A stretch of DNA of 19,842 nt, taken from positions 1 through 19,842 of IMG/VR virus record IMGVR_UViG_3300045988_179637; one strand, written 5' to 3'. The notes under the pieces are model-generated. The model was not told the origin of the DNA, did no database searches, and saw only the letters and a list, made by a program, of their open reading frames with translations. Position numbers and translations under genes: made by a program. This document shows positions 1 through 18,769 of the stretch, piece after piece (the first letter of the stretch is position 1; every line of letters begins with the position of its first letter). The stretch comes from a virus.

Positions 1-342
1 CAGGTTGTTCATTTTTTGGTCACAAAAAATGGCCCTTCTTTCCCAGGCCTTACCAACACAAACACACGTAGGGGCTGGTCCAATTACGGACGGGCCCCTT
101 GACGCTGCTCGTTTTTCGTTCAGACAAATCCACTCGTGTACGTCATCATGCATCTATTATTACATACTTCTTCTCTTCTCGCAACACCTAGAACCTTCTA
201 GTTCGTAACGGTTTCATAACATCTTGTGCTGTCCTGTCCAACCCTTGCAACAGCAAACTGTGCAATATGGAATGTTCATTTATTGCCAGGGGTGGGGCGG
301 GGCCGTAGAGTAGGACACGTCGAAAGGAACAAAAAATGAACA
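1..342. repeat. Left inverted terminal repeat (342 bp), the exact reverse complement of 19501-19842
   Basis: Bases 1-342 are the reverse complement of the last 342 bases. This was checked at both ends and in the middle, and the ORF-track entries 5..208(+) and 19635..19838(-) translate identically. Identity stops after ATGAACA at 342. Confidence 0.95.
266..318 (+). promoter_or_regulatory. Sigma70-like promoter inside the left terminal repeat: -35 TTGCCA (283-288), 17-nt G-rich spacer, -10 TAGAGT (306-311), upstream element GGAATGTTCATTT (269-281)
   Basis: Hexamers are close to consensus with 17-bp spacing and sit 25 nt upstream of the AAAGGA ribosome-binding site and ATG at 336. Nearly the same promoter recurs at 920-948. 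Confidence 0.6.
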
Positions 343-797
343 TTCATGCGGCCACCTACGTCGCTCGCGAACTCTCTGACCGTCTCTACGCCGCCGGCTT
401 CCGGGGCGTGTGCGACATGGATCGTATTGGGTCTGTCATCAGTGCGTACACTACGTATCATCGTGCCCGTAAGGGGCTCACTGAATACCTGGTTGGTTGC
501 GGCGTGCGCGGTGATTACGCGCCCCGTATCGCGGTCCTGGCGGAGCGGGCTTTCCGTCGTGGCGGTGGTGACTGGGGCGGTGCGGGAGCTTTCGCCACCA
601 TCTTGGTGGCGCTTAATGACGCGTCTGGAATGCTGCGCGACGACCCGTCGCGCGTGCGTTCCTTGACTCACGTGATGGAACAGTATGAGCGGGAGGAACT
701 TGACCGTGAGGGTGTGCGTAAGCGGTTGCGGCGGGGGTCATACTGGCGGGGGCGTCAATGGATTGCCAATGAGGTCATGTTGTATTGGTGCGCGTGA
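336..797 (+). CDS. Early hypothetical protein, paralog 1 of a three-member family (shares CDM(D/P)xI, GGAG(A)F...ML(R/A)xD and W.YW motifs with the next two genes)
   Basis: AAAGGA ribosome-binding site 9 nt upstream. A single gene sits between the promoter in the terminal repeat and a strong terminator. The start codon lies inside the terminal repeat. Confidence 0.7.
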   Translation: MNIHAATYVARELSDRLYAAGFRGVCDMDRIGSVISAYTTYHRARKGLTEYLVGCGVRGDYAPRIAVLAERAFRRGGGDWGGAGAFATILVALNDASGMLRDDPSRVRSLTHVMEQYEREELDREGVRKRLRRGSYWRGRQWIANEVMLYWCA

Positions 798-803
798 CGT
801 GCT

Positions 804-852
804 GAGGGTCCGGTTTCTGCCGGACCCTCTTTCATTCTTTTCATTCTTTTCC
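804..852 (+). terminator. Rho-independent terminator: stem GAGGGTCCGG / CCGGACCCTC, loop TTTCTG, then a T-rich tract TTTCATTCTTTTCATTCTTTTCC
   Basis: Perfect 10-bp GC-rich stem followed by a T-rich run, immediately after the stop at 797. Confidence 0.8.
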
Positions 853-892
853 TCTTCCAGATTACCACACTTTCACACGTTGCGCAACTTCA

Positions 893-918
893 AAATGAAC
901 AATCTAGAATGTTCATTT
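893..918. promoter_or_regulatory. 26-bp near-perfect palindrome AAATGAACAATCTAGAATGTTCATTT (two A:A mismatches) abutting the -35; candidate operator
   Basis: Arms AAATGAACA and TGTTCATTT with a TCTAGA core. The same 10-bp half-site (AATGTTCATT / AATGAACATT) flanks the promoter in the terminal repeat at 271-280 and 335-344. Confidence 0.55.
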
Positions 919-919
919 C

Positions 920-948
920 TTGCCACGGGCTGGCGGGGTCCCTACTGT
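920..948 (+). promoter_or_regulatory. Sigma70-like promoter P2: -35 TTGCCA (920-925), 17-nt spacer, -10 TACTGT (943-948)
   Basis: Same -35 hexamer, the same 17-nt G-rich spacer pattern (GGGnTGGnGGGGnCC) and the same upstream TGTTCATTT element as the promoter in the terminal repeat. It sits 40 nt before the ATG at 989. Confidence 0.6.
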
Positions 949-988
949 AGATGCAGGGCCACAAGGAAGGGCCAGAAAGGACACAACA

Positions 989-1390
989 ATGATCTACACA
1001 AGCGCAGCACTCGCCTACCTGCACGAGAATCCCTGCGACATGCCTGACATTGCCCAGGTCCGGGGGGATGTCGCGTGGCTGAAAGCTGGGGAAGGCTGGG
1101 CCGAGGTATGGCGGGACACCGAGCTTGCCTACCGGGACACCGCCCGCGACTACGGCACGGCCGAAGGGATCTGTGCAGCAATCGCAGAACTCGGCCCCGG
1201 ACTCCGGGGGACGGCCGCCCACCTGCTGGCGGGCGACATCCTCAAGGATGAGCCGATTCCTGAGGACCTTCCCGCCGTGGCAGGGACCGAGACCGCTGAG
1301 GGACTCGCAGCGCGAGTCTGGCTGTACTGGGCAGAGAATGACGGCTGTGATGGCCGTGACGTGTGTGAGGGTGTGGGGGTGCTGCGATGA
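989..1390 (+). CDS. Early hypothetical protein, paralog 2 (133 aa)
   Basis: ATG at 989 with an AAAGGA ribosome-binding site about 8 nt upstream, downstream of P2. The N-terminal part of the 920 ORF runs through the promoter and is rejected. Shares AYR...LLAGDIL...PIP...ARVWLYW...GC with the next gene. Confidence 0.65.
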   Translation: MIYTSAALAYLHENPCDMPDIAQVRGDVAWLKAGEGWAEVWRDTELAYRDTARDYGTAEGICAAIAELGPGLRGTAAHLLAGDILKDEPIPEDLPAVAGTETAEGLAARVWLYWAENDGCDGRDVCEGVGVLR

Positions 1391-1800
1391 GGTACGCGAG
1401 TAGCGCCGTTGCGTTCAACTCCCTGTTCTACCACTTGCCTTCCCTCACCTGTCCCCAGGGGGTTGCGCGTCTGCCGCAGGGCAGGAAGTGGCGGAGGCTC
1501 TACAGAGGGATCCTGTTCGCGTATCGCACGGCGGTGGCCGGTGGCGCAGGGTTCGAGGCCGCGCTTGCTGCGGCTGTTGACGCTGCGCAAAATCGTTTGT
1601 TCATTCCGGCCATGCTGGCCGGTGACGTGTTGCGTCAGCTGCCGTTCCCGTATGCGGATGAGCCGGTGTACATGCCACCGTGCCCGTCAGATATCGCACG
1701 AGGGGTCTGGCGGTACTGGGATGCGCATCCCTATGGGTGCGGGTCCGTTCCCCTGTACGAACAAGAGATTTTGATCGAGCCTTACTGGCTCAAGAAGTGA
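1387..1800 (+). CDS. Early hypothetical protein, paralog 3 (137 aa)
   Basis: ATGA overlap with the previous gene suggests translational coupling. Motifs AYR...MLAGDVL...PFP...ARGVWRYW...GCG align with paralog 2 and with GGAGAF...MLRDDP...W.YW in paralog 1. Confidence 0.65.
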   Translation: MRYASSAVAFNSLFYHLPSLTCPQGVARLPQGRKWRRLYRGILFAYRTAVAGGAGFEAALAAAVDAAQNRLFIPAMLAGDVLRQLPFPYADEPVYMPPCPSDIARGVWRYWDAHPYGCGSVPLYEQEILIEPYWLKK

Positions 1801-1813
1801 AAGGTTTTTTCGA

Positions 1814-2338
1814 ATGTTGGTTTCAATGTCATTGATCGATCGTCTCTCCGCAGTCATGTCCCCGGAAGAGCTCCCGCAACTCGGCGCTCTGATCGAGTGG
1901 GCCGAGGACCACGGCTACTACCCGGAGGACCTGATCGCCCCCGTCGTGGGCGACGATGCCCGTTGGGTGTATGATGCCTACCTGTCTCTCAGTGACGTGC
2001 GGGCCAGCCAGGCCAGCGCGGCCGGGCTGACCCTCGATGTCCGGGTGCGCATTCTTGAGGCCGTGGCAGCGGTGCCCGCCGCCATGGGGGTCTGTGCTCG
2101 CTGGGATGCTGCGGTGGCGGCAGCTGAGGGTCTCCCGTGCGCGCCGTGGGCGGCGGTGGCGGATGTCGCCATGCTTTTCGGTTGGCTGCCATCCCGTGAC
2201 CTGCTGTGCTATGTGATGCTTCACGCGTCTGATGGGGCTCGGCGTGCGGCCCGGACCGTGATGCTGCTGAGAGACGGCGTGGATCCCATGGATGCATGGG
2301 AAGGCAGCTACGGGGCTCTGTCTGTGGGGGGTGAGTGA
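1814..2338 (+). CDS. Early hypothetical protein (174 aa), Ala-rich
   Basis: AAAGG ribosome-binding site 9 nt upstream. Same strand and operon as the paralogs. No recognisable domain. Confidence 0.5.
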   Translation: MLVSMSLIDRLSAVMSPEELPQLGALIEWAEDHGYYPEDLIAPVVGDDARWVYDAYLSLSDVRASQASAAGLTLDVRVRILEAVAAVPAAMGVCARWDAAVAAAEGLPCAPWAAVADVAMLFGWLPSRDLLCYVMLHASDGARRAARTVMLLRDGVDPMDAWEGSYGALSVGGE

Positions 2339-2339
2339 C

Positions 2340-2876
2340 GTGACGGCTCGTCTTTGGCCGTCCGAGACGGCATCCGACATGATGCTGGCAATCATCCTGG
2401 CATACCGGCACAAGATGCCGCTGTGCCATGGCGACACGGTCCAGTTCGACGGACCGTGCGCGTCCCGGACGCGCATGGGTCGCGACAAAATTCTTGCCCG
2501 CCTGGTTGCGGATGGGATGGTTGTTCAGCGTCGGGAGGGTCGGCGTGTGCTGTCGCTTCCGACTGCGGCGGGACTGTCGGCGTGGCGTATGCCGATGCCT
2601 GATGACCGGTCCGTGTACCGCCTGCTCCGGGAGGGAGGAACTGACGTTTCCAGCGCCGCCAATGCCGTTCTGGGCCGTTCGCTCCGCAGGTTGTGGCGGC
2701 GGCACTACGCCATTGGCGCCGAGGCTCTGCGGGACCTCGAGCCGCTGGGGTGTGTGCGTCAGGATCGGTACACGGCCCGTCTGTGGGCCGCTCGCGATAC
2801 CGCCATGGTTGAGGCCGTGCTTGACGTGCTGCCTGGTTTGCACCCGTATCGGGTGCGAAAGTTGCTGATCCCGTAG
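2340..2876 (+). CDS. Putative winged-helix (MarR/ArsR-like) DNA-binding protein; start taken as GTG 2340 (alternative ATG 2382)
   Basis: Segment DKILARLVADGMVVQRREGRRVLSLPTAAGLSAW looks like a recognition helix plus wing. The GTG lies 1 nt after the previous stop with GGGGGG 8 nt upstream. The ATG at 2292 overlaps the previous gene by 47 nt, has no ribosome-binding site, and is rejected. Confidence 0.45.
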   Translation: MTARLWPSETASDMMLAIILAYRHKMPLCHGDTVQFDGPCASRTRMGRDKILARLVADGMVVQRREGRRVLSLPTAAGLSAWRMPMPDDRSVYRLLREGGTDVSSAANAVLGRSLRRLWRRHYAIGAEALRDLEPLGCVRQDRYTARLWAARDTAMVEAVLDVLPGLHPYRVRKLLIP

Positions 2877-2890
2877 CTCACGGGATGGGA

Positions 2891-2930
2891 AGGGGCCGTG
2901 CTGTTGGCACGGCCCCTTTCTTCGTTTCAC
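2891..2930 (+). terminator. Rho-independent terminator: stem AGGGGCCGTGC / GCACGGCCCCT, loop TGTTG, then CTTTCTTCGTTTCAC
   Basis: 11-bp GC stem plus a T-rich tail 15 nt after the stop at 2876. Ends the rightward early operon. Confidence 0.75.
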
Positions 2931-3112
2931 CTTGCGTTTACAGGTCGTGATTATCAAGTCACGGCCTGTTTCAGTTGCATGCGGGTGCTTCCTGAGACGT
3001 CATGGGCAGCGCTGTGCGCGTTTCTGACGGCCTTGCAGGCTGTCCGGGTACTAGGGTATGTGGGCAGGGTTTGAGGCTCTCTGAGGGGCGTGTAGCGCTT
3101 ACGGGTTTGCCG

Positions 3113-3143
3113 GTGGGGGAGTGGTGTGACCACTCCCCCACCA
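3113..3143. other. Perfect 13-bp-stem hairpin GGTGGGGGAGTGG-TGTGA-CCACTCCCCCACC in the non-coding convergence zone, followed by C-rich direct repeats (ACTCCCC, CTCCCCTACC x2, through about 3208)
   Basis: Read directly from the sequence. No T-tract follows on either strand, so it is not a classical terminator. Confidence 0.6.
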
Positions 3144-3315
3144 CTCCCCTATCGTGTGCGTAGCAGCATTTTGATTATTCACCCCTCCCCTACCGCTCCC
3201 CTACCGGTCGAATCGGCTTTGACTAGGGGTTTTGCTGTTGCCGGGTGTTGTGTGTCTCCCCTCTTGGTGGAATATTTATGATTTTCACCACTCGTTATTG
3301 AGAATCATTCTCATT

Positions 3316-3340
3316 TTCTGAAAAGGGCCCCTCGCCGGCC
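3316..3340 (-). terminator. Weak candidate terminator for the leftward late operon: GGGCC-GGCGAGG-GGCCC + TTTT on the minus strand, about 140 nt after the ATPase stop
   Basis: 5-bp GC stem with a 7-nt loop and a TTTT run. The surrounding sequence (3290-3480) is AT-rich. Confidence 0.3.
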
Positions 3341-3479
3341 CGTCAGCGAAAAAGTTGAACTCAAAAATTTTTGAAAATCTCCGCAACCAACAACAATCCC
3401 AGAATCATGAAACAAGCAGACAGATCAAGAATCACAAGACCCCCCTCCCATGATTTTTCCGACACCGTTTCCCCATCCA

Positions 3480-4499
3480 TCATCTTCCGGAGAACAATTG
3501 CACGAACCCATTCCGCACCGCGGCATTGTCAAAGGTCATACGCCCCTTCGAGAAAGCCGTACGAGCCATCTGCAACAACGGATTGTTCAACGGCACGAGA
3601 TACACACCACCACCGGCAAGCTCTGCATCGGTGGTGAAACACTTACCCCTCGAGGGACGCTTCCTGGTGCCGTGAAAATGGAGACGTTGTTCATTGTCGA
3701 ACCACTTCCACAAAGAAGTCTCATGCCCCTTGTGCGTTACAGTGAACTCGTATTGCGCGTCCTGCGGTTTCGGAGCAACCATCATCTTGTGATTGTCCCG
3801 GAACGTGTTCCCGACAGCGTATTCCTCGTATTCGGTGCCGGCAATGAACTGCCCGAACCTGGTCCGGCGAACGGATTGCTCGAACGCTGTCACACGCGGG
3901 AAGTGAAACACCGCGAAGCCGCGCTTCCGGCGCGACCATTCACGGTCAGCATCGGCCTCCAGGGCGACCATGTAAGGGTTCTCGATGCGCACGGCGTTGG
4001 CGAGGAAGAACACCCGCACTCTGTCATTCCACCTGTCCACGGTGTTGTAGAAGTTGTTGAACACCGAGAACTCGTCCGGCAAATACCGGACACACCCCTT
4101 TTCAATGATGAACTCATCGAACAGAATGGTGTCGAAGTCGTCAAACACCATCGACTTCATTTGCTGCGCTGTCGACAACGCGACGGCCATGCCGATCTGT
4201 ATCCACTTTGAGCCCTTTACTGGTTCGGGATCGTCGCAGATCTCGAAGTGATGCCCGCGAACGCGGAAAGCGTAATCCGGGAACTCCCGCCCGACGTCGA
4301 CGAACATGTTCTGAATCGTCCGCAGCTCATTTTTGTAGCGCCGCAGATAGATGAACTTCCGTCCGTTGACGATGAAGTCCTCGATACAAAGTTTCTTGGC
4401 ACCGTAGGTTTTGCCAATGCCACGGCCACCAACAACGAAGTTGTATGTGCCGTTCTTCTCCAACAAAGGATCGAAGTCGTAGTACTCGATATTGCTCAT
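3480..4499 (-). CDS. DNA encapsidation (packaging) ATPase, phi29 gp16 homolog
   Basis: Motifs NFVVGGRGIGKTY (Walker A), FIYLRRYKNEL, REFPD, ILFDEFIIEKG (Walker B), RVRVFFLANAV, RRTRFGQFIAGTEYEEY and RMTFDNAAVRN align block by block with phi29 gp16. ATGA overlap with the upstream gene. Confidence 0.95.
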   Translation of the reverse strand: MSNIEYYDFDPLLEKNGTYNFVVGGRGIGKTYGAKKLCIEDFIVNGRKFIYLRRYKNELRTIQNMFVDVGREFPDYAFRVRGHHFEICDDPEPVKGSKWIQIGMAVALSTAQQMKSMVFDDFDTILFDEFIIEKGCVRYLPDEFSVFNNFYNTVDRWNDRVRVFFLANAVRIENPYMVALEADADREWSRRKRGFAVFHFPRVTAFEQSVRRTRFGQFIAGTEYEEYAVGNTFRDNHKMMVAPKPQDAQYEFTVTHKGHETSLWKWFDNEQRLHFHGTRKRPSRGKCFTTDAELAGGGVYLVPLNNPLLQMARTAFSKGRMTFDNAAVRNGFVQLFSGR

Positions 4500-5854
4500 G
4501 GCTTCAATCCTAGACTTTGCAGCCAGGGAATGCAGTTCTTGGAGGAGTAGATGTTACCCGGGGTGATTCCTTTCGGGTAATACTCGAAGTGGCAGTGAAC
4601 TCCGAATGCCCGTCCGGTCTGCCCCATCAACGCAACCGTCTGCCCCGCGGTCACCCTCTGCCCCTTCGAGACGAGAACCTTCTGCGCGTGGCAGTACATG
4701 TACGACTCCCCAGTGGCGGCCTGTATCGCAACGTGGTTCCCGGCCCAGGCTTTCGCCGTGTCGCCCACGACCGTGCCGTCGGTGACGGCCAGCAAAGGGG
4801 TGCCGGCCGCCCCTGCGAAGTCCGTGCCCGTATGGTATCGGGCCCAGGCGCCAGTTTCCCCGAAGCCTGCGGAGATCCTGTACTTCCCTTTCTCCACGGG
4901 GAGGCTGTACTTCCCGGACGGTGGCGGGGCGGGTGGGGTTCCGGGATCGTCATCATCGCCTCCGCCGGGCACCTTGCCGTGTGATGCCTGGCCGGCGGGC
5001 ACCCACATGCCCGGCTGGGTGGGTGTCATCATCTGCTTGTTTCCGGATGTCCAGTGCACCACCATGGATCCGTTGTGCAGCTGAATCAGCCGGATGTCGT
5101 CGGAGCCCCCGTTGTCGCCGTCGATCGGTGGCGGTGGCGGTGGCTGTGGGTCGCTGCCCCCTCCGTCGCCTCCGGGGGTTCCGGGTAGGGTGTCGCCGGC
5201 GTAGGGATCGACTTCCACACCGCCCCGCATGCCGGGTTTCAGCGTGTACCCCGGGAATGGTGGACTCGTGTCCCACTTGTCGATCGCGGCCTTCGCCTTC
5301 GTGTAACGGCTCCAATATTTCGTGAAGCTGCCGCCGACGGAGCGAAGTGCGTTCATGTAGGTGTCGAGGGACGGGTTCGATCCGGCGATCCTGACGGCCT
5401 TGTTCGTCCCAACCGGCCACTGGTGATTGGAGACGATGAACATGATCGTCGTCTTCGGAACGACATCGGGGTCGATGCCCTTCCGCTTGGCGAGGGCTAG
5501 GTAGTCGCCCATGTCCTGGTTTGCGGTGACGTGCTGCACCCACTTCGTCAGCGGCCGCACCATCACGGCCCGGATGGGTGCGAGTTCTTCCTTGCGCAGC
5601 CACAGCGAGTTCCACGCCTCCGAGGAGGGGCCGTTGGTTTCGAGCATGGAGCGGAGCCGGCCGGGCAGCATGGCGTACCCGGCCGGATCGTACTTCCGGA
5701 TCCTCGAGATCAACCTGCCCGCCCGCACCCCATACCACTGCATGATGCCGATCGTGATCGGGTCGCCGGTGTAGATGTCCGTATAGGACAGGTTGGATTC
5801 CACCAGCCCGAGGACGTGGATGGTGACGTTGAGTTCCGGAGTTCCGAATGCCAT
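4496..5854 (-). CDS. Tail-associated peptidoglycan hydrolase, phi29 gp13-like: N-terminal lysozyme-like domain, Pro/Gly/Asp-rich linker, C-terminal peptidase M23 (LytM)
   Basis: C-terminal motifs YHTGTDFAG...GNHVAI...GVHCHFE (HxxxD / HxH) are an M23 signature. Position between the gp12-like and gp16-like genes matches phi29 gp13. The start at ATG 5854 is 1 nt after the upstream TGA. The longer ORF reaching 5941 would overlap gp12 by 86 nt and is rejected. Confidence 0.8.
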   Translation of the reverse strand: MAFGTPELNVTIHVLGLVESNLSYTDIYTGDPITIGIMQWYGVRAGRLISRIRKYDPAGYAMLPGRLRSMLETNGPSSEAWNSLWLRKEELAPIRAVMVRPLTKWVQHVTANQDMGDYLALAKRKGIDPDVVPKTTIMFIVSNHQWPVGTNKAVRIAGSNPSLDTYMNALRSVGGSFTKYWSRYTKAKAAIDKWDTSPPFPGYTLKPGMRGGVEVDPYAGDTLPGTPGGDGGGSDPQPPPPPPIDGDNGGSDDIRLIQLHNGSMVVHWTSGNKQMMTPTQPGMWVPAGQASHGKVPGGGDDDDPGTPPAPPPSGKYSLPVEKGKYRISAGFGETGAWARYHTGTDFAGAAGTPLLAVTDGTVVGDTAKAWAGNHVAIQAATGESYMYCHAQKVLVSKGQRVTAGQTVALMGQTGRAFGVHCHFEYYPKGITPGNIYSSKNCIPWLQSLGLKP

Positions 5855-5855
5855 G

Positions 5856-7571
5856 TCAGATTGCGTTCCCTTGCGTGTCCTTCCAGCCCTCGAGGGTGAA
5901 GATGCACAGTTTGTTCTTGCCGGTGTGCCAATACATGGCACCCATCATGGATTTCGCAGCATCCCCGAAGGAAGGGAGGGTGTCGCCGTAGCCGGTGACG
6001 ACGGCCCCGTTCAACGGGGACGCGATGTGCTGGCCGGCGTGGAACACCTGCTGGCCGCCACGATCCTGGTTCACCCTGTACGGGAACGTCGCAACGGTGG
6101 TTCCGGGCTTCCTTGGGCGCATGTACCGGTAGGCGCCGGTGGACATGTTCGTGTTCGAATCGCCGAGAGCGATGACCTGCAACGCGCCCGGGTTGGTTTC
6201 ATTCGTGTCGATGATGAAACCGGCGTCCTCGTTCGGAGAACCTCCCTTGTAGAAGTTGCCGATGAGGTTGAGGTTCTCGCCGGAGCCTTGCTGGGAGGCG
6301 TCCCAGATGGCGCGGTGGTTGGGAAGGTAGATCTGGCAGCCGATGGCGGTGGCGGAGGCGCCGCCGCCACGGAAGTGCAACAGCCTGCGGCTCTCGGCCT
6401 GGATCTGCTTGTCGCTCTCGAAGTAGGTCCCGAAGATGCTGACCTGGCAGTTCGTGTTCAGTTCGATCGCGGTCTGATACGCCTCGATGGCGCCACCGTT
6501 GATGCGGCACATGGTGCCCTCCCTGAGGATGACACCCATTTTCCCGTTCTTGTCGCCACGGTCGGCCATGATGTGAGGCTCCGTCACGGCGAGGTTGTAG
6601 CAGTAGTTCGCGTCGACTGCGATCGTGTTCCACCACCACTTGCAGCGATCCAGTTGGGTGTACCAGTTTTGTTCCAGGTACACCGCTTTGTCCCATTTCA
6701 GGAAGTAGCAATCCCTGATGGTTGCGTAGTTCTTGATGTGCAACCCGATGCAGCCGAGGCGTTCGAAACCCGGGCCTTCGAGGCGCATGCGTTCCATGAC
6801 GTTGCCGTACTTCAAGACGATGCCCTTGGATTCTCGCATGTCGAACACAAGGGAGGAGTCGGGTTCGTTGTCGCCCCACTGCCCGGAGGTTCCGGCAATG
6901 TACTGGTCCTCGAGGAACTCCAAGGAACCAGTGACCCGGTACACACCCTTGGGGAAGTACACATGGCCACCCTTCCCGGCAGCAGCGATCGCTTTCCGGA
7001 TGGCAGCGGTGTCGTCGGTTGTTCCGTCGCCGGTGGCTCCGTGGTCCTTGACGACCTCGTAGTGGCGGTTGGCCTTCTTGGCTGCGAATTCCCGCACTTC
7101 CTTGACCTCCCGGTCGACCTTGGCGGTCAGTTCGGTGCGGGCGGTGCCGACGAGCTGCTCGAGGGAGGCACGGGCCTGCGCGACCTGGTTGGTGAGGTCG
7201 GTGCGGAATTGCTGAATCGTGGCGTCGGTGTCGCTCTTGTATTTCCCGAACACCTTGTCGAACTGCGCCGTCGTGTACGTCAACAACTCTTCGCCATTCA
7301 TCATGGCGAAGTGAATGATTCCGTTCTCGTCGTCGTGAACGGTGTGATGCACGAACTTGGCGATGAACTCGTTGATCTTGTTCGTCGAATCCGTGACGAA
7401 CTTCTCGATCGCCTTGTCCTGAATGCCGTGCGCATTCACCAACTCGTTAACCTTGTCCTTGATCTGCGCAAGCACATCGAGGAATGTGTACGCATCGGAG
7501 TGGGTGAATGCGACAACGGAGTTGATCGGACCGATCGGGCCGATTGGTGCAATGTAGGGGGCTATGGGCAT
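5856..7571 (-). CDS. Pre-neck appendage / tailspike-like protein (phi29 gp12-like) with a right-handed beta-helix (pectate-lyase fold) depolymerase domain
   Basis: VKDHGATGDGTTDDTAAIRKAIAAAGKGGHVYFPKG matches the N-terminal cap of pectate_lyase_3 / phi29 gp12. Gene order follows connector then lower collar. TGATG overlap with the lower-collar gene. Confidence 0.8.
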   Translation of the reverse strand: MPIAPYIAPIGPIGPINSVVAFTHSDAYTFLDVLAQIKDKVNELVNAHGIQDKAIEKFVTDSTNKINEFIAKFVHHTVHDDENGIIHFAMMNGEELLTYTTAQFDKVFGKYKSDTDATIQQFRTDLTNQVAQARASLEQLVGTARTELTAKVDREVKEVREFAAKKANRHYEVVKDHGATGDGTTDDTAAIRKAIAAAGKGGHVYFPKGVYRVTGSLEFLEDQYIAGTSGQWGDNEPDSSLVFDMRESKGIVLKYGNVMERMRLEGPGFERLGCIGLHIKNYATIRDCYFLKWDKAVYLEQNWYTQLDRCKWWWNTIAVDANYCYNLAVTEPHIMADRGDKNGKMGVILREGTMCRINGGAIEAYQTAIELNTNCQVSIFGTYFESDKQIQAESRRLLHFRGGGASATAIGCQIYLPNHRAIWDASQQGSGENLNLIGNFYKGGSPNEDAGFIIDTNETNPGALQVIALGDSNTNMSTGAYRYMRPRKPGTTVATFPYRVNQDRGGQQVFHAGQHIASPLNGAVVTGYGDTLPSFGDAAKSMMGAMYWHTGKNKLCIFTLEGWKDTQGNAI

Positions 7572-8278
7572 CAGAATCTACCTCCGTACATGAAGCCCGG
7601 GAAGAAAGGTGGCATGATCCATGGTATCGGCTCGGGAACGATCCGCTGACCCGAACTCCACACATTCATGAACAAGTCCGAGAGATTGTTGAGCACGTGC
7701 CCGTCAACATTGATGTAAGAGGACAGGTATTCACCCATCAGCCGGGTGACCGATCCCTGACGGCCCGAGGAGTCGTTGAGGGCGTCGTTGATGGTCTCGG
7801 CAGTGGAACGGCCGCTGCTGGTGCCGGTTCCGTCACTGCTGGACGACGAGCGACCGCCAGATGTTGCGTAGTCCCCGTCGCTCTTGAGCATCTGCTGTGG
7901 AAACTGGCTGGACAGTGATCCGGACTTCGTCAATGACGTGTTAGTCGACTCCCCAGACTCCGTGCTGGACGACTTCGTCGTACCCTTGTTGACCGACTTG
8001 ATCTCGTACGTCGACAGAATGTCGCCGACGTTGGCGATCGCAAGATAGGCCTGGTTGAACATTGGCATGTCCCGGTATAGGCGTCGGCGGAGTTCGAAGA
8101 AGAACAGCTCGTACGTTTCCTGGCCAACCTCGCGCAGCCAGTAGTGTTCGAGAATGATGCGATTCAGCCGGGGCCGGTAGGCCTCGGAGAAAATCGGATA
8201 CGAATCCAACCCAGTATCGAGATTCAAGCGCTTCGCATACTCGATTCCCTGCCGGAGTTCCCCGGTGTAATCAGACAT
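7571..8278 (-). CDS. Putative lower collar protein (gp11 position) with a long Ser/Thr/Gly-rich low-complexity segment
   Basis: Located between the connector and appendage genes as in phi29 and overlaps the connector gene by 8 nt. Assignment is by synteny only. Confidence 0.5.
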   Translation of the reverse strand: MSDYTGELRQGIEYAKRLNLDTGLDSYPIFSEAYRPRLNRIILEHYWLREVGQETYELFFFELRRRLYRDMPMFNQAYLAIANVGDILSTYEIKSVNKGTTKSSSTESGESTNTSLTKSGSLSSQFPQQMLKSDGDYATSGGRSSSSSDGTGTSSGRSTAETINDALNDSSGRQGSVTRLMGEYLSSYINVDGHVLNNLSDLFMNVWSSGQRIVPEPIPWIMPPFFPGFMYGGRF

Positions 8279-9197
8279 TCAATCCAGCCTTCCCATTCTC
8301 CCGTGCGTTCGTTTCGGCCTTGTACGTCAAGTCTGGGATGACGTTCTCGTCGAACGCCCACTTCACCGACACATCCAAACCGAACTTGCGGTTCATCTCC
8401 TCAACTGCCTGCTGCCTCGGCTTGTTGAACGAATTCCGGGCCGCAATGACTTGCCCATCCCTCGAGGACGCCTCGTCAGCCACGAGACGCTCCTTCTTGG
8501 TCTCATCCACACTGGTGATACCCATGAACGTCAACGCCTCCCGCCACAGGTGCTGCCATTCCTTGCGGGTCTGCTCAAGATAGGCGGGCTGGATCTGCAT
8601 ATCGAGAGTGCTGATCACCTGATCGTAATTCAGCTCCGGGTAGCCGAAGATCACCGGAGCACCTTGATCCCAATCCCTCAGCAGGTTCGCGTAGGTCTGT
8701 TTCTGCCCTTCCGGGCAGGTGATGATTTTCGTCACCCTCAGGTTCTTCGTGAGGATCTCGAGTGTGGTGGTGACGTCGCCGAGCCGGGCTGCGAAGTCGA
8801 GCATCTGGTCGGCGATCCCGCGCCGTGAGTTGGTGCCCCACACGGCCACACACTCTTCCTTGGGGAGTTGCAGCGACACGTACGGTGGCGGCGCGTAGGT
8901 CGTGTACGAAGTTGCGTTGCCGTACAGGTCGAGAGGGCCGGAGGGGGAGGCTGCGGCCATCACCCAGTCGTCGTATCGGCCGTCCCAGTACAGCACAACC
9001 AGGCCGCCGTAGTACAGCTGCTTCTCAACAAACCGGACATCAATGGATTCGGGTAGGCCTTCCCATTCGAAACGGGCCATGCACCATTCCGACAGCTTGT
9101 CGTAATAGCCTGCGGTGCGCATGTTCCCGAGACCGATGTGATTCCGCGGTATGAACCGGGACATCACTTCATGGGGGTTGTACTGATTCCTGCTCAT
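8271..9197 (-). CDS. Head-tail connector (portal), phi29 gp10 homolog, 309 aa
   Basis: FEWEGLPESIDVRFVEKQLYYGGLV, GAPVIFGYPE, WREALTFMGITSVDETKKERLVADEASSRDGQV and FGLDVSVKW align with phi29 gp10 (FEWENLPPTINPSFLEK..., [52 protein letters not shown]). The length equals phi29 gp10. The start at ATG 9197 forms an ATGA overlap with the tail-knob stop. The N-terminal extension to 9413 is rejected. Confidence 0.9.
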   Translation of the reverse strand: MSRNQYNPHEVMSRFIPRNHIGLGNMRTAGYYDKLSEWCMARFEWEGLPESIDVRFVEKQLYYGGLVVLYWDGRYDDWVMAAASPSGPLDLYGNATSYTTYAPPPYVSLQLPKEECVAVWGTNSRRGIADQMLDFAARLGDVTTTLEILTKNLRVTKIITCPEGQKQTYANLLRDWDQGAPVIFGYPELNYDQVISTLDMQIQPAYLEQTRKEWQHLWREALTFMGITSVDETKKERLVADEASSRDGQVIAARNSFNKPRQQAVEEMNRKFGLDVSVKWAFDENVIPDLTYKAETNARENGKAGLNV

Positions 9198-11386
9198 AGC
9201 ACAACCGTACCCCATCGGTTTCCCGTGGGGGCATTGTCCGCGATGTCGAGGTGAATGATGTGGTCGGGATTCCGCCACACGGTCACACCGCGCAGGAACA
9301 TGCCCTTGATAGTGGACTTGTACAGCTCTGGCATGAATGCGGTGTCCATGGTCACGTCCGCCATTTTCCAATAGCAGAAGTTGCTCATGGGCAGCAGCTC
9401 CGATGCATTCCAATACCGGTTTAGCGCATAGCCGTATCGCAGCCAGTACTCGCCGAGCCGTTCAACAGCGACCTGGTCGACGGTCTTCACCCGCACATTG
9501 ACCGTGTATCCCTGCTCATTGATCAAAGCGGAGAAGTTCCCTCCGAGCTGGCCGGACACGGAGGGTTGCAGCATCTTCGCGTCCTGAACCTTTGCGTTGA
9601 TGCCCGCGATCGCCATGCGTGCGTCGCCGGCAGCGGTCGCCTTGGCCAGGGAAAGATTGCTGTTCGCAATCCCACGAGAAAGGTTGTTGGAGATGCGGGT
9701 GCGGCCGGCGAGTTCGTCGTTGGCGATGGCGTTACGCCCGTTTATGGATATGTTGTTGATCTGATGATCCATCCAGGCATTCCCGACACCCATGAGGCCG
9801 TTGATGGCACCCCCGAGAAGGTTTCCGGAGGCCATCTGTGACAAGCCTCCGACACCACTGTTGATTCCCTGCTGCATGGACTTCAACCAGTTCAGCTCCC
9901 GCCCCAACGATGCGTTTCGGTTAGTGATGTCACGGCCGAGATCCGCGTTCTGCTGGGAGGCGTCAATGCCCATCATTGCCTGTTGGAATGCGGTGTTGGC
10001 GCCCATCATGGCCCGCTGCTGCGCCCAGTTGACGCTGTCATTCTGGAACGCCAACTGGTTCTTGTTACTAGCGAGGTAGTCGAGATATGAGTTGTTGGTG
10101 ATCGGCAGCTGAGGGTATTCCGTGATCACCGTGCATGCGTCCAGGTACGCCCCACCCCACGGGTCCTGCCGGAACCTGCGGCCGTAATTCAATGGGTAGA
10201 TAACGGTGCGCGGATTCGGGGGGATGATGCAGGCGGAGATCTGCAATTCAAGCCTGTTGCCGGAGAACAACTCGGGTTTCAGGATCACCGGTGAACCGGT
10301 GTATGTGGTGAGTTCGAACGCCGAATACGGATGTGTTGCGAACTTGACAAGGTGCTGATATCTGGCGGGAATGCGGGCCATCATGGTTGTGGTGATGTCC
10401 GGCGTCACTTCCTGCCGATAGGTGAAGGAACCGGTGACGAGCTTCCGCGTGGCGGCATCCCGGCCCAGGAAGGATTCCCCACCACCGAAGCTCTCGGGCA
10501 GCAGGGGCACGATGAAGCACGCCATGATGGAGCGTGACGCCCAGGGGGCGTTCTTCAGGGAATCCATGACGGTTACGAAGTGATCCGCGCTCGTAAACCA
10601 CAGGTCGGCGCCGACGGACACCGACACGCGACGGTACTGGTTGACCGTGCCCTCACCGTTCTGTTTCCGCTCGGTGGAGTGCAGATCGATGTTGGAACCT
10701 TTGGACGTGTTCAGAACAGGATTCTGGGTGGTGCCGGGATCGGTGGTGAGATCGGCCGAGGCGAAGAAAACGATGCTGTACGCGCCGTCGCCACGCGACT
10801 GGGGGTGCCGGATGCGGTGGCGCAGATAACCGGTTTCGATCATGTCGGCGCCACAGTCCAGGCCTTCGGGAACGAGGAGGTTCTTCAACCCGGTTTCGGT
10901 GCCGGCACCGGCGACCAGGAATGACAGATGACCGCGCTCGACGTAGCAGCGACCGAGAGTGACTTCCCACTGGAAACTGGACCACACATCCAGCTGAAGG
11001 TGGAATGCCGTGGTCTGCGGGGCAATGTGCTCCACCCCCTTGACAAAATAGTAGAAGGTGAGCGGCCCATCATTGTGGGTCTCCTTGTTCGTCACCCTCA
11101 TGAAGTTGTAGCCGTACGCCGACGACAGTGGAATGTCGAGGAGGACGTCCTGTTCGGGGCGGGCGTAGGAGAGTTCATTGAACTTGATGCGGGGTCCGGG
11201 GGAGGTTTCGAGGTACTTGTCCAGAGCTGCTCTGGATTCGAACTTGACAACGTTGTTGTATTCGGAATCCCATGGCACGTTGCACAACGTGACTTCGGTG
11301 CCGGGTCCCCAGATGTCGTAATTGAACACCGAACCCGCCGGCAGGACGGGACCGGCGGGTTCGATGTCGAAAGGTGTGGCTGTCAC
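9194..11386 (-). CDS. Tail knob / distal tube protein, phi29 gp9 homolog, with an expanded Q/N/G-rich loop; GTG start
   Basis: N-terminal VTLCNVPWDSEYNNVVKFES aligns with phi29 gp9 [21 protein letters not shown]. C-terminal YGYALNRYW...GVTVWRNPD aligns with YGYKINRVK...GITLWHTDN. An in-frame stop sits 9 nt upstream of the GTG. Confidence 0.85.
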   Translation of the reverse strand: MTATPFDIEPAGPVLPAGSVFNYDIWGPGTEVTLCNVPWDSEYNNVVKFESRAALDKYLETSPGPRIKFNELSYARPEQDVLLDIPLSSAYGYNFMRVTNKETHNDGPLTFYYFVKGVEHIAPQTTAFHLQLDVWSSFQWEVTLGRCYVERGHLSFLVAGAGTETGLKNLLVPEGLDCGADMIETGYLRHRIRHPQSRGDGAYSIVFFASADLTTDPGTTQNPVLNTSKGSNIDLHSTERKQNGEGTVNQYRRVSVSVGADLWFTSADHFVTVMDSLKNAPWASRSIMACFIVPLLPESFGGGESFLGRDAATRKLVTGSFTYRQEVTPDITTTMMARIPARYQHLVKFATHPYSAFELTTYTGSPVILKPELFSGNRLELQISACIIPPNPRTVIYPLNYGRRFRQDPWGGAYLDACTVITEYPQLPITNNSYLDYLASNKNQLAFQNDSVNWAQQRAMMGANTAFQQAMMGIDASQQNADLGRDITNRNASLGRELNWLKSMQQGINSGVGGLSQMASGNLLGGAINGLMGVGNAWMDHQINNISINGRNAIANDELAGRTRISNNLSRGIANSNLSLAKATAAGDARMAIAGINAKVQDAKMLQPSVSGQLGGNFSALINEQGYTVNVRVKTVDQVAVERLGEYWLRYGYALNRYWNASELLPMSNFCYWKMADVTMDTAFMPELYKSTIKGMFLRGVTVWRNPDHIIHLDIADNAPTGNRWGTVVL

Positions 11387-11402
11387 ACCAATTCAGTATA
11401 GC

Positions 11403-11639
11403 CTACTCGGCATGTTTCGGTGAGGGTTTCGCAATGTCATACACGCCCGCGGCGGCGAGACCAACGATGAGCCCTTCGGACAGGGCCTTCACCCAGGCGA
11501 CATCGGCGTGCTGCGCGGCGAACACGGCGAGCACACCGACGACGAGCGACACGACAGGGGCGGCCGCGGCGGGAAGCCCGGCCTTCTTGAGCAGGTTGAC
11601 GAGTGCCAGCACGGCCGGCACGGTCGCGATCTCAATCAT
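11403..11639 (-). CDS. Putative holin (78 aa, 2-3 predicted transmembrane helices)
   Basis: MIEIATVPAVLALVNLL...VVSLVVGVLAVFAA...LIVGLAAAGVY is hydrophobic with a charged C-terminus. GGAAGGAAA ribosome-binding site. ATGATTGA overlap with the upstream gene. The TTG-start extension to 11714 is rejected. Confidence 0.55.
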   Translation of the reverse strand: MIEIATVPAVLALVNLLKKAGLPAAAAPVVSLVVGVLAVFAAQHADVAWVKALSEGLIVGLAAAGVYDIAKPSPKHAE

Positions 11640-11871
11640 TGGTTTCCTTCCAGAGTTCTTCGAGTTTCGGCGGCTCCGGTGAATCCGGGCGCCGGTACCT
11701 GTAGTACAGGTCAACGAGTTGACGGTACACCATCCACAGTGAGTTGATGCGGCGATTTTCCCGCTCGAGCTGGTTTTCGAGCCGGGTCACACGCTGCCAC
11801 GTGTGACCCAGCACGACCGCAACGCCACCCAGCACCCCGACGGTGAGGGTGACGTCCAGCAGTGGGGGCAT
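11632..11871 (-). CDS. Small membrane protein (N-terminal transmembrane helix plus coiled coil); lysis-associated (second holin, antiholin or spanin-like)
   Basis: LLDVTLTVGVLGGVAVVLG transmembrane segment, then a charged helical tail. Lies between the peptidase and the holin. Confidence 0.4.
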   Translation of the reverse strand: MPPLLDVTLTVGVLGGVAVVLGHTWQRVTRLENQLERENRRINSLWMVYRQLVDLYYRYRRPDSPEPPKLEELWKETND

Positions 11872-11872
11872 G

Positions 11873-12532
11873 TCAGTTCTTCCCGCTCACAGCCGCGATG
11901 AGCTGTCTCAACAGCTCATTGGTCTTCTCCAACTCGGTTGCCACCATGCCGGTGCGCGACGCGGTGAGCGAGATCATCTCGTTGTTGTTGAGTTCGCTGT
12001 GAAGCTCGCGACGGAATTCCTCGGCAAGCATCTCTTCTCCTTCCACAGCCCCTCCGAGTGGGCTGTCATCGACGAGGTGGAGGGCCTGGTCGCCTCCACC
12101 GAAGTAGGCGTGCACGTGGTCACGGTGCGCCTCGGACACGCCACCCGTGTAGAGCCACTTCCACGTACCACGATCGGGATTCCACGATCGGGCGATTCCC
12201 TCATTGTAGATGTCGAAGATGATCCACCTGAGGTTGATGTGACGGGCGTTGACCTGGAACCAGCGCACCAACTTGAGTGCGTTGTCGCGTTCCTGCGGGG
12301 TGGGCAGCACACCCACCTTGCGGGAAATGATGAAGTCCTGGGCGTTGCCGGAGGAGTGCTCGTGGTTGAGGTCCACGAGTTTCCAGTTGCGCCGCACCCA
12401 GTTGGGTTCACCTTTCCCCTGCCCCAGCCAGATGCCTGCTGGAAGGCGAGGGAAGAGGTGCTCATCAACACGACGCACATTCATGTTGACAGCACCCACC
12501 CCGTTCGGCAGTTGAATGCTCACTTGGGCCAC
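11873..12532 (-). CDS. Putative endolysin: LAS-type zinc metallopeptidase (peptidase M15 / VanY-like)
   Basis: NHEHSSGNAQD fits the M15 motif HxxGxAxD, and DHVH fits the downstream HxH zinc ligands. Adjacent to two small membrane proteins. Confidence 0.5.
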   Translation of the reverse strand: MAQVSIQLPNGVGAVNMNVRRVDEHLFPRLPAGIWLGQGKGEPNWVRRNWKLVDLNHEHSSGNAQDFIISRKVGVLPTPQERDNALKLVRWFQVNARHINLRWIIFDIYNEGIARSWNPDRGTWKWLYTGGVSEAHRDHVHAYFGGGDQALHLVDDSPLGGAVEGEEMLAEEFRRELHSELNNNEMISLTASRTGMVATELEKTNELLRQLIAAVSGKN

Positions 12533-13905
12533 TTCACCTTGCCGGCATCGCTATCGACGGCAACGTCGGTGGAGAAGGTGACCTTCGGATCCGACGCCGC
12601 CTTGGCGGTCACCGCCAGTTTCGCCGCTTCCTCCTCGGCACCGATGAACAGCACCCCGTCCTGTGTGACGACGGTGCGCGGATCGGTGTTGCCGGCAACA
12701 CTCCAGAGGATGCCATGCTGGTCGAACTCGGAACCGCCGGTGCGGGTCATGGTGGCGTTCAGCAAGTACAAGAACCCGGGCGCCACCTTCTCAACCGTCT
12801 TCTCGGCAATGTCGGTGACACCGATGGCGGTGATCTTGGTGATCTTGCCGTGATCGACGGTTGCGGTGGTGACCTCTTCACTCGTGAAGAGCACCGCATT
12901 GGCGAACAGACTGGCGCCGATGATCTCGTGGTGATGGAGCCAGAAATTCTCGTACAACCCCATGGGGTTCGCGAACGACCTGTTCTCATACAACACGTCC
13001 CCGCAGACGAAGAACTTTTTGTCCACGAGAATTGCCTGCATCTTCGGAATACCGATGTACTCCGCGGGCACCTTGATGATGCGATAGTCGATACGACCCT
13101 TCTCCATGTTGAACATGGCAGCGAGTGCATCAACGTCAATGGTTGCAGCAGCCTCGGGAGTGACGAACAGGATCATGTCCTCCGTGTTGGACCAGGTGGG
13201 CAGCTTCAACGGATTGTACTTCTCCGACAGGTACACGAGCTTGTCAGCAGTGGTACGGATGGCCTTGATCAGTTTCTTGGCCTCGGCCTCACCAGCCGTC
13301 GCGGCGGTGACATCGGGAACCTGGATCTTCGTGAACCCGCCATTGGCGTAATGCTCACGCAACAAGGAGGCCATGAGCAGAAACTCGTCCCAGTTGTCAG
13401 AGGTGACGGGAGCCTGCATGATCTGGGCGACGAGATCGCCGAGGCCACCACTGGAGAGCATGGCGCGCCGCATCATGGCCTCGGAAATGGAAATCTGGTA
13501 CATGTCCTCCCGGTTGGTGTGGTAGAACGTGGATTCGATCCGCGGCAGACGGCGCCGGAAGATCTCGGTGCCGTATTCCCTGTTGTTGTACCAGTGCTCG
13601 GCCTCGATGAGACCAACGTAGATGTCCTCGATCTTGCCGCCGTAGTCAAGCACGGCACGCTTGAACTCGGAAAGCTTGTTCGTCCAGGGACGGGCGCCGT
13701 CGATGTAGATGGTGGACACGACATTCACCAGGTTGGTGACAAACTCGTTCCGGATCAGAGGGTCGCGGAGAATGTTCTTGCCGAGTTCGACGAAGTTCGA
13801 CTGGGTCGCTTCGGGAATGCGGCGCTGGAAGTCGAACGAGCCGTTGGCGCGGAGGGTGTTTATGATCTGGGCGTTGGTTGCGCCCTGATACTTCGGTGCG
13901 GGCAT
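12520..13905 (-). CDS. Major capsid protein, phi29 gp8 homolog
   Basis: ALAAMFNMEKGRIDY, QAILVDKKFF, ANPMGLYENFW and ASLFANAVLFTS align with phi29 gp8 VLAKAFNMNRTDF, EAVLVDKDWF, RNPRGLYWNYY and SRFANAVAFVS. Preceded by a small acidic gene. Confidence 0.9.
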   Translation of the reverse strand: MPAPKYQGATNAQIINTLRANGSFDFQRRIPEATQSNFVELGKNILRDPLIRNEFVTNLVNVVSTIYIDGARPWTNKLSEFKRAVLDYGGKIEDIYVGLIEAEHWYNNREYGTEIFRRRLPRIESTFYHTNREDMYQISISEAMMRRAMLSSGGLGDLVAQIMQAPVTSDNWDEFLLMASLLREHYANGGFTKIQVPDVTAATAGEAEAKKLIKAIRTTADKLVYLSEKYNPLKLPTWSNTEDMILFVTPEAAATIDVDALAAMFNMEKGRIDYRIIKVPAEYIGIPKMQAILVDKKFFVCGDVLYENRSFANPMGLYENFWLHHHEIIGASLFANAVLFTSEEVTTATVDHGKITKITAIGVTDIAEKTVEKVAPGFLYLLNATMTRTGGSEFDQHGILWSVAGNTDPRTVVTQDGVLFIGAEEEAAKLAVTAKAASDPKVTFSTDVAVDSDAGKVKWPK

Positions 13906-13917
13906 GAGTTTCCTTTC

Positions 13918-14196
13918 TCAGTGTGCGGTTTCTCGAGGGAACATTGTTTCCCGCAAGTGTTCCCAGGACCAGTCTTCCGGTTCCTCGGTTGTGGGGGTGC
14001 CGACCTGCCTGGTCAGGGTGTGGCGCAGGTCCGTGTACTTCTTGTCCAGTGCGTCGATGCGCTGGTGGAAGTCGCTCATCATCTGTTCCGCGATCTCCTT
14101 GAATCGCTCGCCAAGATCCTGAACCGGCTCGTTCGACACTTCAACGGGCTGCTGTTCGTAAACTTCTTCCGCCCCGGAGTTGTCGGTGTTTTCCAT
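13918..14196 (-). CDS. Putative scaffolding protein (92 aa, highly acidic, helical)
   Basis: Sits immediately upstream of the capsid gene, like phi29 gp7 (98 aa). Strong AAAGGAG ribosome-binding site. Assignment by position and composition only. Confidence 0.45.
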   Translation of the reverse strand: MENTDNSGAEEVYEQQPVEVSNEPVQDLGERFKEIAEQMMSDFHQRIDALDKKYTDLRHTLTRQVGTPTTEEPEDWSWEHLRETMFPRETAH

Positions 14197-14343
14197 GTGT
14201 CTGCTCCTTTCGATTGAGTGACGGTCGGCCGGTGGGACACCACTCCCTGACTGCCGGGCCCTTTCACGGGTGGTTCCGGTTCAGCCGTCTCCGACCGCCG
14301 CCACAAATGGCTTCACGACCTCCTGGGCCGCTGCCATGACCCA

Positions 14344-17077: not shown

Positions 17078-17097
17078 CCGTGAAGGGTGAGGGCCCG
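17068..17097. other. 12-bp-stem hairpin GGGCCCCCACCC-GTGAA-GGGTGAGGGCCC (one mismatch) that covers the candidate terminal-protein start region
   Basis: Read directly from the sequence. On the minus strand it is followed by GTTTCATCATG. Confidence 0.5.
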
Positions 17098-17120
17098 CCC
17101 TGTTCCCCTTCTGCGCGGCA

Positions 17121-17618
17121 TCAATCAGCGATCTTGAGGGTCAGGAACGACCTGGCCCCACGCCCCTTCACCTTCGCAGCGACAACCCGGATCGGCTCTT
17201 CCCAGGTAGAGGGATGGCCGGCGAGGCCGATGAGCTGCTTCAGATCACTCATGACCACCTCCGACATGGTCGCGTACGACTTCCCTTCAACGTCGTCGAC
17301 GAGCACAAGGCGAACGCCGGTGCGGGTCTCGAAGTGACCGGGGCGGGTTTCGGCCTGGAAATCAACCACGGTCGCCACGTAGTGGCGCAGGTTGATGACG
17401 GTGCCGATGTTCTCCTCGAGCGGCTCGGCATCGGAGTTCACCTTGTAGAGCCTCACGGCGTTGGCGGGATTGAGGTCGATGCTGGTGGCGACCCCGCTGG
17501 TGGGGTTCGCCAAGGCGCGGATGGAGTCGAATGCGAACTGGCGCGACCCTGCGGGGACGAGTGCCGGGTCGGTGACGATCTCGGCGTCGACGGTAGCGAT
17601 GGAAGTGGACTCAGTCAT
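17121..17618 (-). CDS. Hypothetical early protein (165 aa); possible DNA-binding replication accessory protein by position only
   Basis: Clean ORF on the operon strand, just upstream of the terminal protein. No motif recognised. Confidence 0.5.
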   Translation of the reverse strand: MTESTSIATVDAEIVTDPALVPAGSRQFAFDSIRALANPTSGVATSIDLNPANAVRLYKVNSDAEPLEENIGTVINLRHYVATVVDFQAETRPGHFETRTGVRLVLVDDVEGKSYATMSEVVMSDLKQLIGLAGHPSTWEEPIRVVAAKVKGRGARSFLTLKIAD

Positions 17619-18699: not shown

Positions 18700-18769
18700 T
18701 CTTGCCGGCGAAACAGTCCGCCATCAATTTAATGTATGACCTGATCATGGCCACACAATCCCCCCTTCC

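Follow-up and report, generated by a model that had tools for sequence, protein, structure and literature searches.

The described systems closest to the locus examined here are a phage terminator, a phage packaging RNA and a plasmid partition site. In phage phi29, the late/early terminator TD1 sits downstream of gene 16, and an RKR cluster in the connector contacts the packaging RNA (pRNA); in plasmid R1, the parC site carries 11-bp repeats bound by ParR. A 2024 review regards pRNA as unique to phi29 and related Bacillus phages, and the phi29 pRNA gene is located at 147-320, near the left genome end (PMC11476376). Here, we describe a 484-nt non-coding zone (2877-3360) in the IMG/VR virus record IMGVR_UViG_3300045988_179637, of which positions 1 to 19,842 were analysed as a whole (the window). 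Two opposing operons converge in this zone beside the gene of a gp16-type packaging ATPase, and we read it, with a probability of about 0.5, as a composite in which both operons end, a perfect inverted repeat (H4) would act as a two-way backstop, the right half would be a protein-binding platform and a G/U-rich core in the left half would probably be an RNA domain.

The original prediction had described a 550-bp non-coding convergence zone at 2930-3480 and proposed it as a candidate pRNA locus. The gap is real and so is the convergence, with the plus-strand gene block stopping at 2876 and the ATPase gene stopping at 3480 on the minus strand; the boundaries required revision, since 3361-3483 on the minus strand is coding. 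About a quarter of the zone first reported is a missed protein gene (ORF40), about a quarter of the non-coding part consists of terminators, and the two terminator hairpins in 2887-2975, H1 and H2, were absent from the earlier list. The features of the zone and its right border are as follows.

2887-2929, plus strand: H1, which ends the left operon; a 15-16-bp stem-loop rich in GC (2887-2921), with the run TTTCTTCGTTT after it
2940-2975, plus strand: H2, a 13-bp hairpin (2940-2969) with TTTCAG after it, interpreted as a tandem terminator
2976-3110, plus strand: G/U-rich core (135 nt), predicted three-way junction of helices P1, P2 and P3
~2986-2995 with 3081-3091, plus strand: core helix P1, predicted
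~2998-3030, plus strand: core helix P2, predicted
~3031-3080, plus strand: core helix P3, predicted
3112-3142, no strand: H4, a perfect inverted repeat whose arms, GGTGGGGGAGTGG / CCACTCCCCCACC, enclose a 5-nt loop and consist of 11-nt units GGGGAGTGG
3129-3206, no strand: iteron-like array whose direct units of 11 nt, CCNCTCCCCYR (minus strand, GGGGAGNGG), stand at 3130, 3141, 3182 and 3193
3220-3237, no strand: conserved block TGACTAGGGGTTTTGCTG, from the alignment of 11 relatives
3258-3275, no strand: conserved block CCCCTCTTGGTGGAATAT, from the alignment of 11 relatives
3300-3312, no strand: palindrome GAGAAT-C-ATTCTC, with one change in 1 of the 11 relatives covering it
3320-3342, minus strand: late-operon terminator, GGGCC-loop-GGCCC followed by UUUU, 15-20 nt past the ORF40 stop
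3361-3483, minus strand: ORF40, 40 aa with one transmembrane segment, called as a gene in relatives

Like phi29 TD1, the zone lies just past the packaging ATPase gene, where opposing transcription units meet. It also resembles the terminators of converging operons in general, being furnished with GC-rich hairpins and U-tracts whose structure is kept as their sequence is replaced, but it differs from them in having three separate terminators spread over 460 nt, with about 400 nt of sequence-constrained DNA in between.

The evidence for constraint comes from relatives that were found with the ATPase and the last left-operon protein as queries, followed by contig look-ups, giving 12 distinct copies of the zone. 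Across the zone, identity to the window is about 85% in most relatives and about 74% in one group (represented by a composite of L013 and L007, and called the L007 group below). Four-fold degenerate sites of the ATPase gene, which serve as the neutral reference, are 49-60% identical in most relatives and 39% in the L007 group. Broken down by segment, identity to the window is distributed as follows.

2877-2975, no strand: terminator stretch, 64-80% in most relatives, 62% in the L007 group
2976-3110, no strand: core, 77-87% in most relatives, 73% in the L007 group
3111-3210, no strand: H4 and repeats, 84-90% in most relatives, 75% in the L007 group
3211-3360, no strand: right part, 81-91% in most relatives, 66% in the L007 group

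Because the zone is 62-91% identical as against 39-60% at the four-fold ATPase sites, the whole 484 nt is under purifying selection and evolves far more slowly than neutral sites; for the roughly 400 nt between the terminators, evolution is 2-4 times slower. Furthermore, in one relative (L014) identity rises from 44-65% to 85-89% at about 2960, a mosaic breakpoint inside H2. Over the whole L014 locus, the left operon is patchy (44-86%), and identity from 2961 rightwards is 79-91%. To judge from this alignment, the left operon has been swapped as a module together with its terminators, and because of the rise at about 2960 the core, the iterons and H4 are taken to share the descent of the ATPase module, not that of the left operon they adjoin. 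In addition to holding operon ends, the zone would then carry a strongly constrained non-coding module belonging evolutionarily to the ATPase/late side. The module is confined to few phages: the core motif has zero occurrences in 185,579 bacterial and archaeal genomes, and in IMG/VR and the JGI metagenomes it was found in the same phage group only. In L011, the closest syntenic outgroup (shared gene order, 53% ATPase identity), about 31 nt separate the ATPase gene from the converging gene, in a comparison that covers part of the L011 contig.

As a candidate for a non-coding RNA, the zone is legitimate, being the strongest-folding and most clearly constrained non-coding stretch of the genome, unmatched by the others in either respect. 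The segment 2877-3150 (plus strand) has a folding z of -7.4, and the 120-nt window from 2881 (plus strand) has the lowest z, -8.5, among 658 windows on both strands.

The terminators account for part of this signal region. H1 contains a 12-bp perfect core at 2890-2918, and L014 and L012/L013 carry another GC hairpin (GGGCCGGGGCCTTCGGGTCCCGGCCC) with a T-run in the same place. In L017, the alignment shows the pairing of H2 kept through an A-U to G-C replacement and several G-U pairs that are valid on the plus strand only. The late terminator is a short one (stem of 5 bp, 4 U's), and in the L007 group its position is taken by another hairpin (TTTTCGC...GCGAAAA) followed by TTTTT. H1, H2 and 3320-3342 fit, by sequence, the definition of intrinsic terminators, namely a GC hairpin and U-run at an operon end with conserved structure, and they are ordinary operon ends. 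Each operon thus has hairpin-plus-U termination of its own (H1 and H2 on the plus strand, one on the minus strand), the long operon closes with the small membrane-protein gene ORF40, and terminator structure outlives the replacement of its sequence.

H4 lacks a U-run and hence falls outside that definition. A perfect 13-bp-stem hairpin had been predicted at 3113-3143, and it is real, lying one base away at 3112-3142. All other perfect hairpins in the genome are shorter, shuffled sequence yields 0.2 stems of at least 10 bp, and GC skew switches sign at H4. H4 is present in all relatives, with its arms kept and its loop freely variable; in the composite of L013 and L007 the arms reach 24 bp, with two units each. 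As a GC-rich inverted repeat at the GC-skew switch, it would stop read-through from both sides. Contigs from at least five independent assemblies also break inside H4 (the ends of L001, L007-L010, L012, L013 and L020), and L009 and L010 continue directly into Illumina adapter there. The probable cause of these breaks is that assembly fails at a perfect inverted repeat of 13-24 bp whose unit number varies; alternatively, they may mark a physical DNA end or a sequencing block.

The right half of the zone has a different makeup. The C-rich direct repeats of the original prediction proved genuine and form two 11-nt tandem arrays at 3129-3149 and 3181-3206. All 5 genome matches to GGGGAGNGG lie within 3116-3201 (86 bp), against 1.1 expected genome-wide. 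The period is 11 nt, the spacer between the two unit pairs is conserved (GCGTAGCA...TTTTGAWTATT), and the copy number varies by whole units, with one more in L002, L021, L022 and L023 and one fewer in L017, L013_L007 and L021. On these sequence features, the array fits the iteron-type definition of at least 3 short units at helical-turn spacing in one locus. Next to it, AATATTC(C)ACC boxes stand in inverted orientation at 3173-3183 (plus) and 3266-3276 (minus), and the conserved blocks TGACTAGGGGTTTTGCTG and CCCCTCTTGGTGGAATAT are set apart by a variable 20-22-nt spacer. The predicted 13-bp palindrome GAGAATCATTCTC is indeed at 3300-3312, is unique in the genome and is kept even in the 74%-identity L007 group, in which its flanks have diverged. 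Such a pattern of blocks and spacers is typical of protein-binding DNA. The right half (3143-3312) would be a DNA platform for a sequence-specific protein, made up of the AATATTC boxes, the 13-bp palindrome and the 11-bp units, which recur about once per helical turn, in both orientations and in variable copy number.

This arrangement is reminiscent of plasmid partition and replication iterons such as parC, in which short units likewise lie about one helical turn apart in direct and inverted orientation, and of plasmid iteron regions in their whole-unit copy-number variation and adjoining AT-rich boxes. Unlike in those regions, the units number only 4-7, neither a partner protein nor a partition ATPase is recognised, and the replicon is a protein-primed linear phage genome for which an internal origin is unneeded. 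Two further motifs in the zone were set aside: TTATTCACC, an 8/9 match to a DnaA box in the window, is not conserved in relatives, and the resemblance of AACAGCAAA to the terminal repeat is at chance level.

For the 135-nt core, RNAalifold gives a three-way junction on the plus strand, and the minus-strand consensus fold is nearly nil (-6.4 kcal/mol). The substitutions carry a strand-specific asymmetry: G>A changes affect 2 of the 19 G's paired with C, 6 of the 14 paired with U and 11 of the 24 unpaired, and C>U changes affect 8 of the 19 paired C's. The asymmetry, which suggests a plus-strand structure under this fold model, is weak (p ~0.03-0.04) and retains some circularity. Based on the modelled fold, the core may be a plus-strand folded RNA consisting of the three-way junction plus H4, and the left half of the zone would act through this RNA. 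A test on distinct substitution events (P 0.002) was discounted as circular, its structure having been derived from the same alignment.

Several results weigh against reading the zone as this composite. Covariation over the core, which had been suggested as a check, is not above controls (120/500 and 186/500). Paired cells make up 94.6% of the alignment of 12 sequences, a value equalled by column shuffles in 120 of 500 cases, and only two pairs change on both sides. The plus-strand consensus of the core, at -27.2 kcal/mol, is only slightly better than the -24.0 ± 3.0 kcal/mol (P ~0.13) under a null in which the same substitutions are placed at random positions and the fold is re-predicted. No sigma-70-like promoter was found in 2600-3800, and a looser scan of both strands gave weak, non-conserved candidates only, with non-canonical promoters remaining possible; moreover, two terminators lie directly upstream of the core. 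The constraint on the core exceeds what a terminator region needs, leaving part of its function unaccounted for. The backstop role of H4 is purely inferred, and this hairpin has no U-tract on either strand. Finally, no binding protein was identified. The neighbouring 165-aa protein (2379-2873, plus strand) is predicted by AlphaFold (pLDDT 82.5) to have a helix and beta-hairpin followed by long helices, and it has no PDB fold match below E 0.1 and no Pfam or PHROG match, so that an initial guess of a winged helix is backed by neither fold nor family search.

Among the alternatives, the one that survives best dispenses with RNA altogether, although we consider it somewhat unlikely. Here, phage or host proteins would bind the iterons, the inverted repeat, the palindrome and the core, making 2976-3312 a place of nucleoprotein assembly, possibly a centromere-like, packaging-polarity or silencing site. 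Such a site would explain 11-bp units that are direct and inverted and vary in copy number, a nearly invariant palindrome with a 1-nt centre, and the failure to find either a promoter or covariation. Moreover, since the 342-bp terminal repeats are identical, whatever distinguishes left from right in the genome would have to be encoded internally. The core fits this explanation poorly, being constrained fairly uniformly and not in short motifs, and the protection of C-paired G's from G>A together with frequent C>U is a strand asymmetry unexpected for a double-stranded DNA site. Nor was a partition ATPase or a DNA-binding fold recognised in the genome.

An RNA from the opposite strand is improbable. 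It would arise from read-through of the weak late terminator or from an unrecognised promoter near the palindrome, yielding a purine-rich product that ends at H4 and contains 4 or 5 GGGGAG (Shine-Dalgarno-like) repeats. The shortness of the late terminator would permit such read-through, the block is linked to the late module, the GC skew of 3140-3260 is that of minus-strand genes, and 3143-3330 (minus strand) folds better than a position-randomised null. This fold signal derives mainly from the palindrome and small hairpins, however, which a DNA site would conserve too, and no promoter was found for the product. The core is nearly without consensus structure on the minus strand, and the wobble changes in H2, H4 and the CCG...CGG hairpin suit the plus strand only.

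The proposal from which the analysis started, that the zone encodes a phi29-type pRNA, found no support in a family match, complementary loops, a promoter or significant covariation. The Rfam pRNA model (RF00044) has no match in the whole window at the gathering score and none at E ≤ 10 in 2850-3500 or 1-400, and for the zone and the terminal repeat Rfam at E ≤ 10 returned nothing beyond chance-level hairpin matches. The unpaired segments of the predicted core fold (a UGU loop, a U(A/G)GG loop and small internal loops) contain no complementary loop pair of at least 4 nt, a result that depends on the fold being right. In the other direction, L011, Av-1, Mendel and Reje were searched with a covariance model of the core (R1), which gave no match better than E 0.3. 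The connector N-terminus (MSRNQYNPHEV...) is without an RKR cluster. The zone does not belong to the phi29 pRNA family; it is a constrained zone of termination and regulation that may contain a new plus-strand RNA.

A more distant relationship, in which the plus-strand core (a junction of ~107 nt) and H4 together form a prohead RNA of ~170 nt that bridges the connector and the gp16-type ATPase in this clade, is distinctly improbable. The setting is that of the phi29 pRNA in so far as the zone is encoded beside a gp16-type ATPase in a genome with a phi29-type connector, capsid protein and protein-primed polymerase, the ATPase being a full-length Podovirus_Gp16 match. The core (~107-135 nt), with its predicted three-way junction and then an extra hairpin, recalls pRNA domains I and II in size and branching, and its strong and fairly uniform purifying selection, its linkage to the ATPase module across the recombination breakpoint, its plus-strand-specific substitution asymmetry and a folding strength found in no other non-coding stretch of the genome would all be expected of such an RNA. 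The differences are nonetheless substantial. Unlike the phi29 pRNA, the zone has no match to the family model even at E ≤ 10, no loop pair for ring formation and no promoter of its own, with two terminators directly upstream in place of one; it is sited at a convergence point, 3 kb into the genome; and it is conserved within one narrow phage group only. Its covariation is not significant, syntenic L011 has no such zone beside its ATPase gene, the R1 search came back empty in Av-1, Mendel, Reje and L011, and the RKR cluster is missing from the connector N-terminus.

A precedent of sorts exists in the Actinomyces phage Av-1, whose record (NC_009643) carries a depositor's 'packaging RNA' feature at 16295-16402, antisense to ORFs C and B. 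As with the zone, this is a proposed pRNA in an actinobacterial phi29-like phage near the convergence of a long and a short opposing operon; unlike the zone, it is antisense within coding sequence, and the two share zero similarity. The annotation looks unsupported, because its folding z is +0.53, no better than shuffles, and Rfam at E ≤ 1 has no match in Av-1 (nor in L011, Mendel or Reje).

The weakest alternative, that an unannotated small protein gene such as the 53-aa ORF at 3002-3163 (plus strand) explains the conservation of the core, has a likelihood close to nil, since the frame is open across the core in most relatives but variable sites (14/35, 21/36 and 23/37 per frame position) show no third-position excess, L014 has a frameshift, the start codon is gone in L014 and L017, the changes are non-conservative, and open frames are expected by chance on an A-poor strand. 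A coding core was rejected for its lack of codon periodicity and for the ORF broken in L014 and L017. The 3002-3163 frame, open yet non-coding on an A-poor strand with few stop codons, is a trap for gene callers.

Setting these alternatives beside the composite of operon ends, backstop, protein platform and RNA domain leaves the gene at its right border to be described. The start of ORF40 forms an ATGA overlap with the ATPase stop, and it is translationally coupled to the ATPase; the protein consists of MMDGETVSEKSWEGG and then the transmembrane segment. Gene callers report a counterpart in every relative, of 39-40 aa or, in a more distant group, 57 aa. Across these relatives the hydrophobic segment diverges in sequence and keeps its character, and one codon position is protected (9/40 variable, versus 22-26/40). 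ORF40 is probably holin-like, because the gene after the ATPase is the one-transmembrane holA in Av-1 and has a weak Phage_holin_9 match in another relative; the label rests on synteny only, ORF40 having zero sequence similarity to Av-1 HolA. The 14-bp palindrome that had been reported at 3359-3372 did not survive: TCAAAAATTTTTGA actually occupies 3361-3374, where it is the stop and last codons of ORF40, and its palindromy is not kept in relatives. In L007-L010, the 57-aa membrane protein has a duplicated N-terminal motif (GKRLRKILGW... and then DGETVAEKTWEGG), because of a 50-nt duplication at the ATPase stop.

The window as a whole is a complete genome, linear and bounded by perfect inverted terminal repeats of 342 bp (1-342 and 19501-19842), and it is that of a phi29-like actinophage, a phage of high-GC bacteria. 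It encodes a protein-primed family-B polymerase, a phi29-like single-stranded DNA-binding protein, a Phi29_MCP capsid protein, a tail knob, upper and lower collar proteins and an M23 peptidase protein. The ATPase gene (3483-4499, minus strand) matches Pfam PF05894 Podovirus_Gp16 over its full length (E 2e-60). The left block consists of five plus-strand genes running rightward (336-2876), all of whose products are orphans, and all remaining genes run leftward from 19507 to 3480. There is no DNA similarity to GenBank phages, close or remote; at the protein level, phi29-like phages of Curtobacterium, Arthrobacter, Microbacterium and Actinomyces (Av-1) and one Rhizobium phage are the isolates that come closest, with ATPase identities of ~37-44%. 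A tRNA/tmRNA scan found zero genes. Inside the long minus-strand operon, near the start of the tail-knob gene, a 12-bp perfect hairpin at 11330-11363, which ranks third in length genome-wide, may serve as a terminator or attenuator within the operon.

The terminal repeats had been named as a second possible pRNA source, through run-off transcription from an outward-facing promoter. The promoter-like site is present, reading from 184 to 156 on the minus strand.

156-184, minus strand: outward promoter-like TTGCGA-N17-AATAAT, with a mirror copy at 19659-19687 (plus strand)

Its hexamers are conserved and its spacer variable in L022 and L025, and judged by sequence it may be a real promoter. The 150-nt run-off product fares badly as a pRNA candidate, with a z of -1.7 and a fold no better than chance, and covariation in three sequences gives no net support. 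The conservation seen in the terminal 100 nt would be expected of a protein-primed replication origin regardless. An inward promoter of the terminal repeat, TTGCCA-N17-TAGAGT, is located at 283-311. The outermost bases form a 9-bp hairpin (~10-31), and L022 and L025 begin 13 nt further in, both at the same base. Additionally, 884-950, in the 798-988 gap of the left operon, is a third, 75%-identical copy of the inner terminal repeat (247-313) and holds TTGCCA-N17-TACTGT; the terminal-repeat promoter region thereby appears to have been reused inside the left operon.

For annotation, the analysis adds the missed 40-aa membrane-protein gene and three terminators. For the biology of packaging, the zone provides a concrete target for asking whether gp16-type motors beyond the Bacillus phages have an RNA component, a segment of 135-170 nt that is strongly constrained, folds on the plus strand only and is linked to the ATPase. 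Should the long shot of a packaging function hold, the core and H4 (2976-3143) would make this actinobacterial phage the first one beyond those of Bacillus with a prohead-RNA analogue, a structurally convergent or extremely diverged scaffold RNA for a gp16-type motor, encoded beside the ATPase and inherited with its gene. Even if the zone is not a pRNA, it is unusual that 2.4% of a 19.8-kb genome otherwise almost without spare DNA is selected non-coding sequence with iterons and a palindrome. Apart from its terminators, the zone is an element of no known family, and it suggests that phages of this group have a layer of regulation new to their description.

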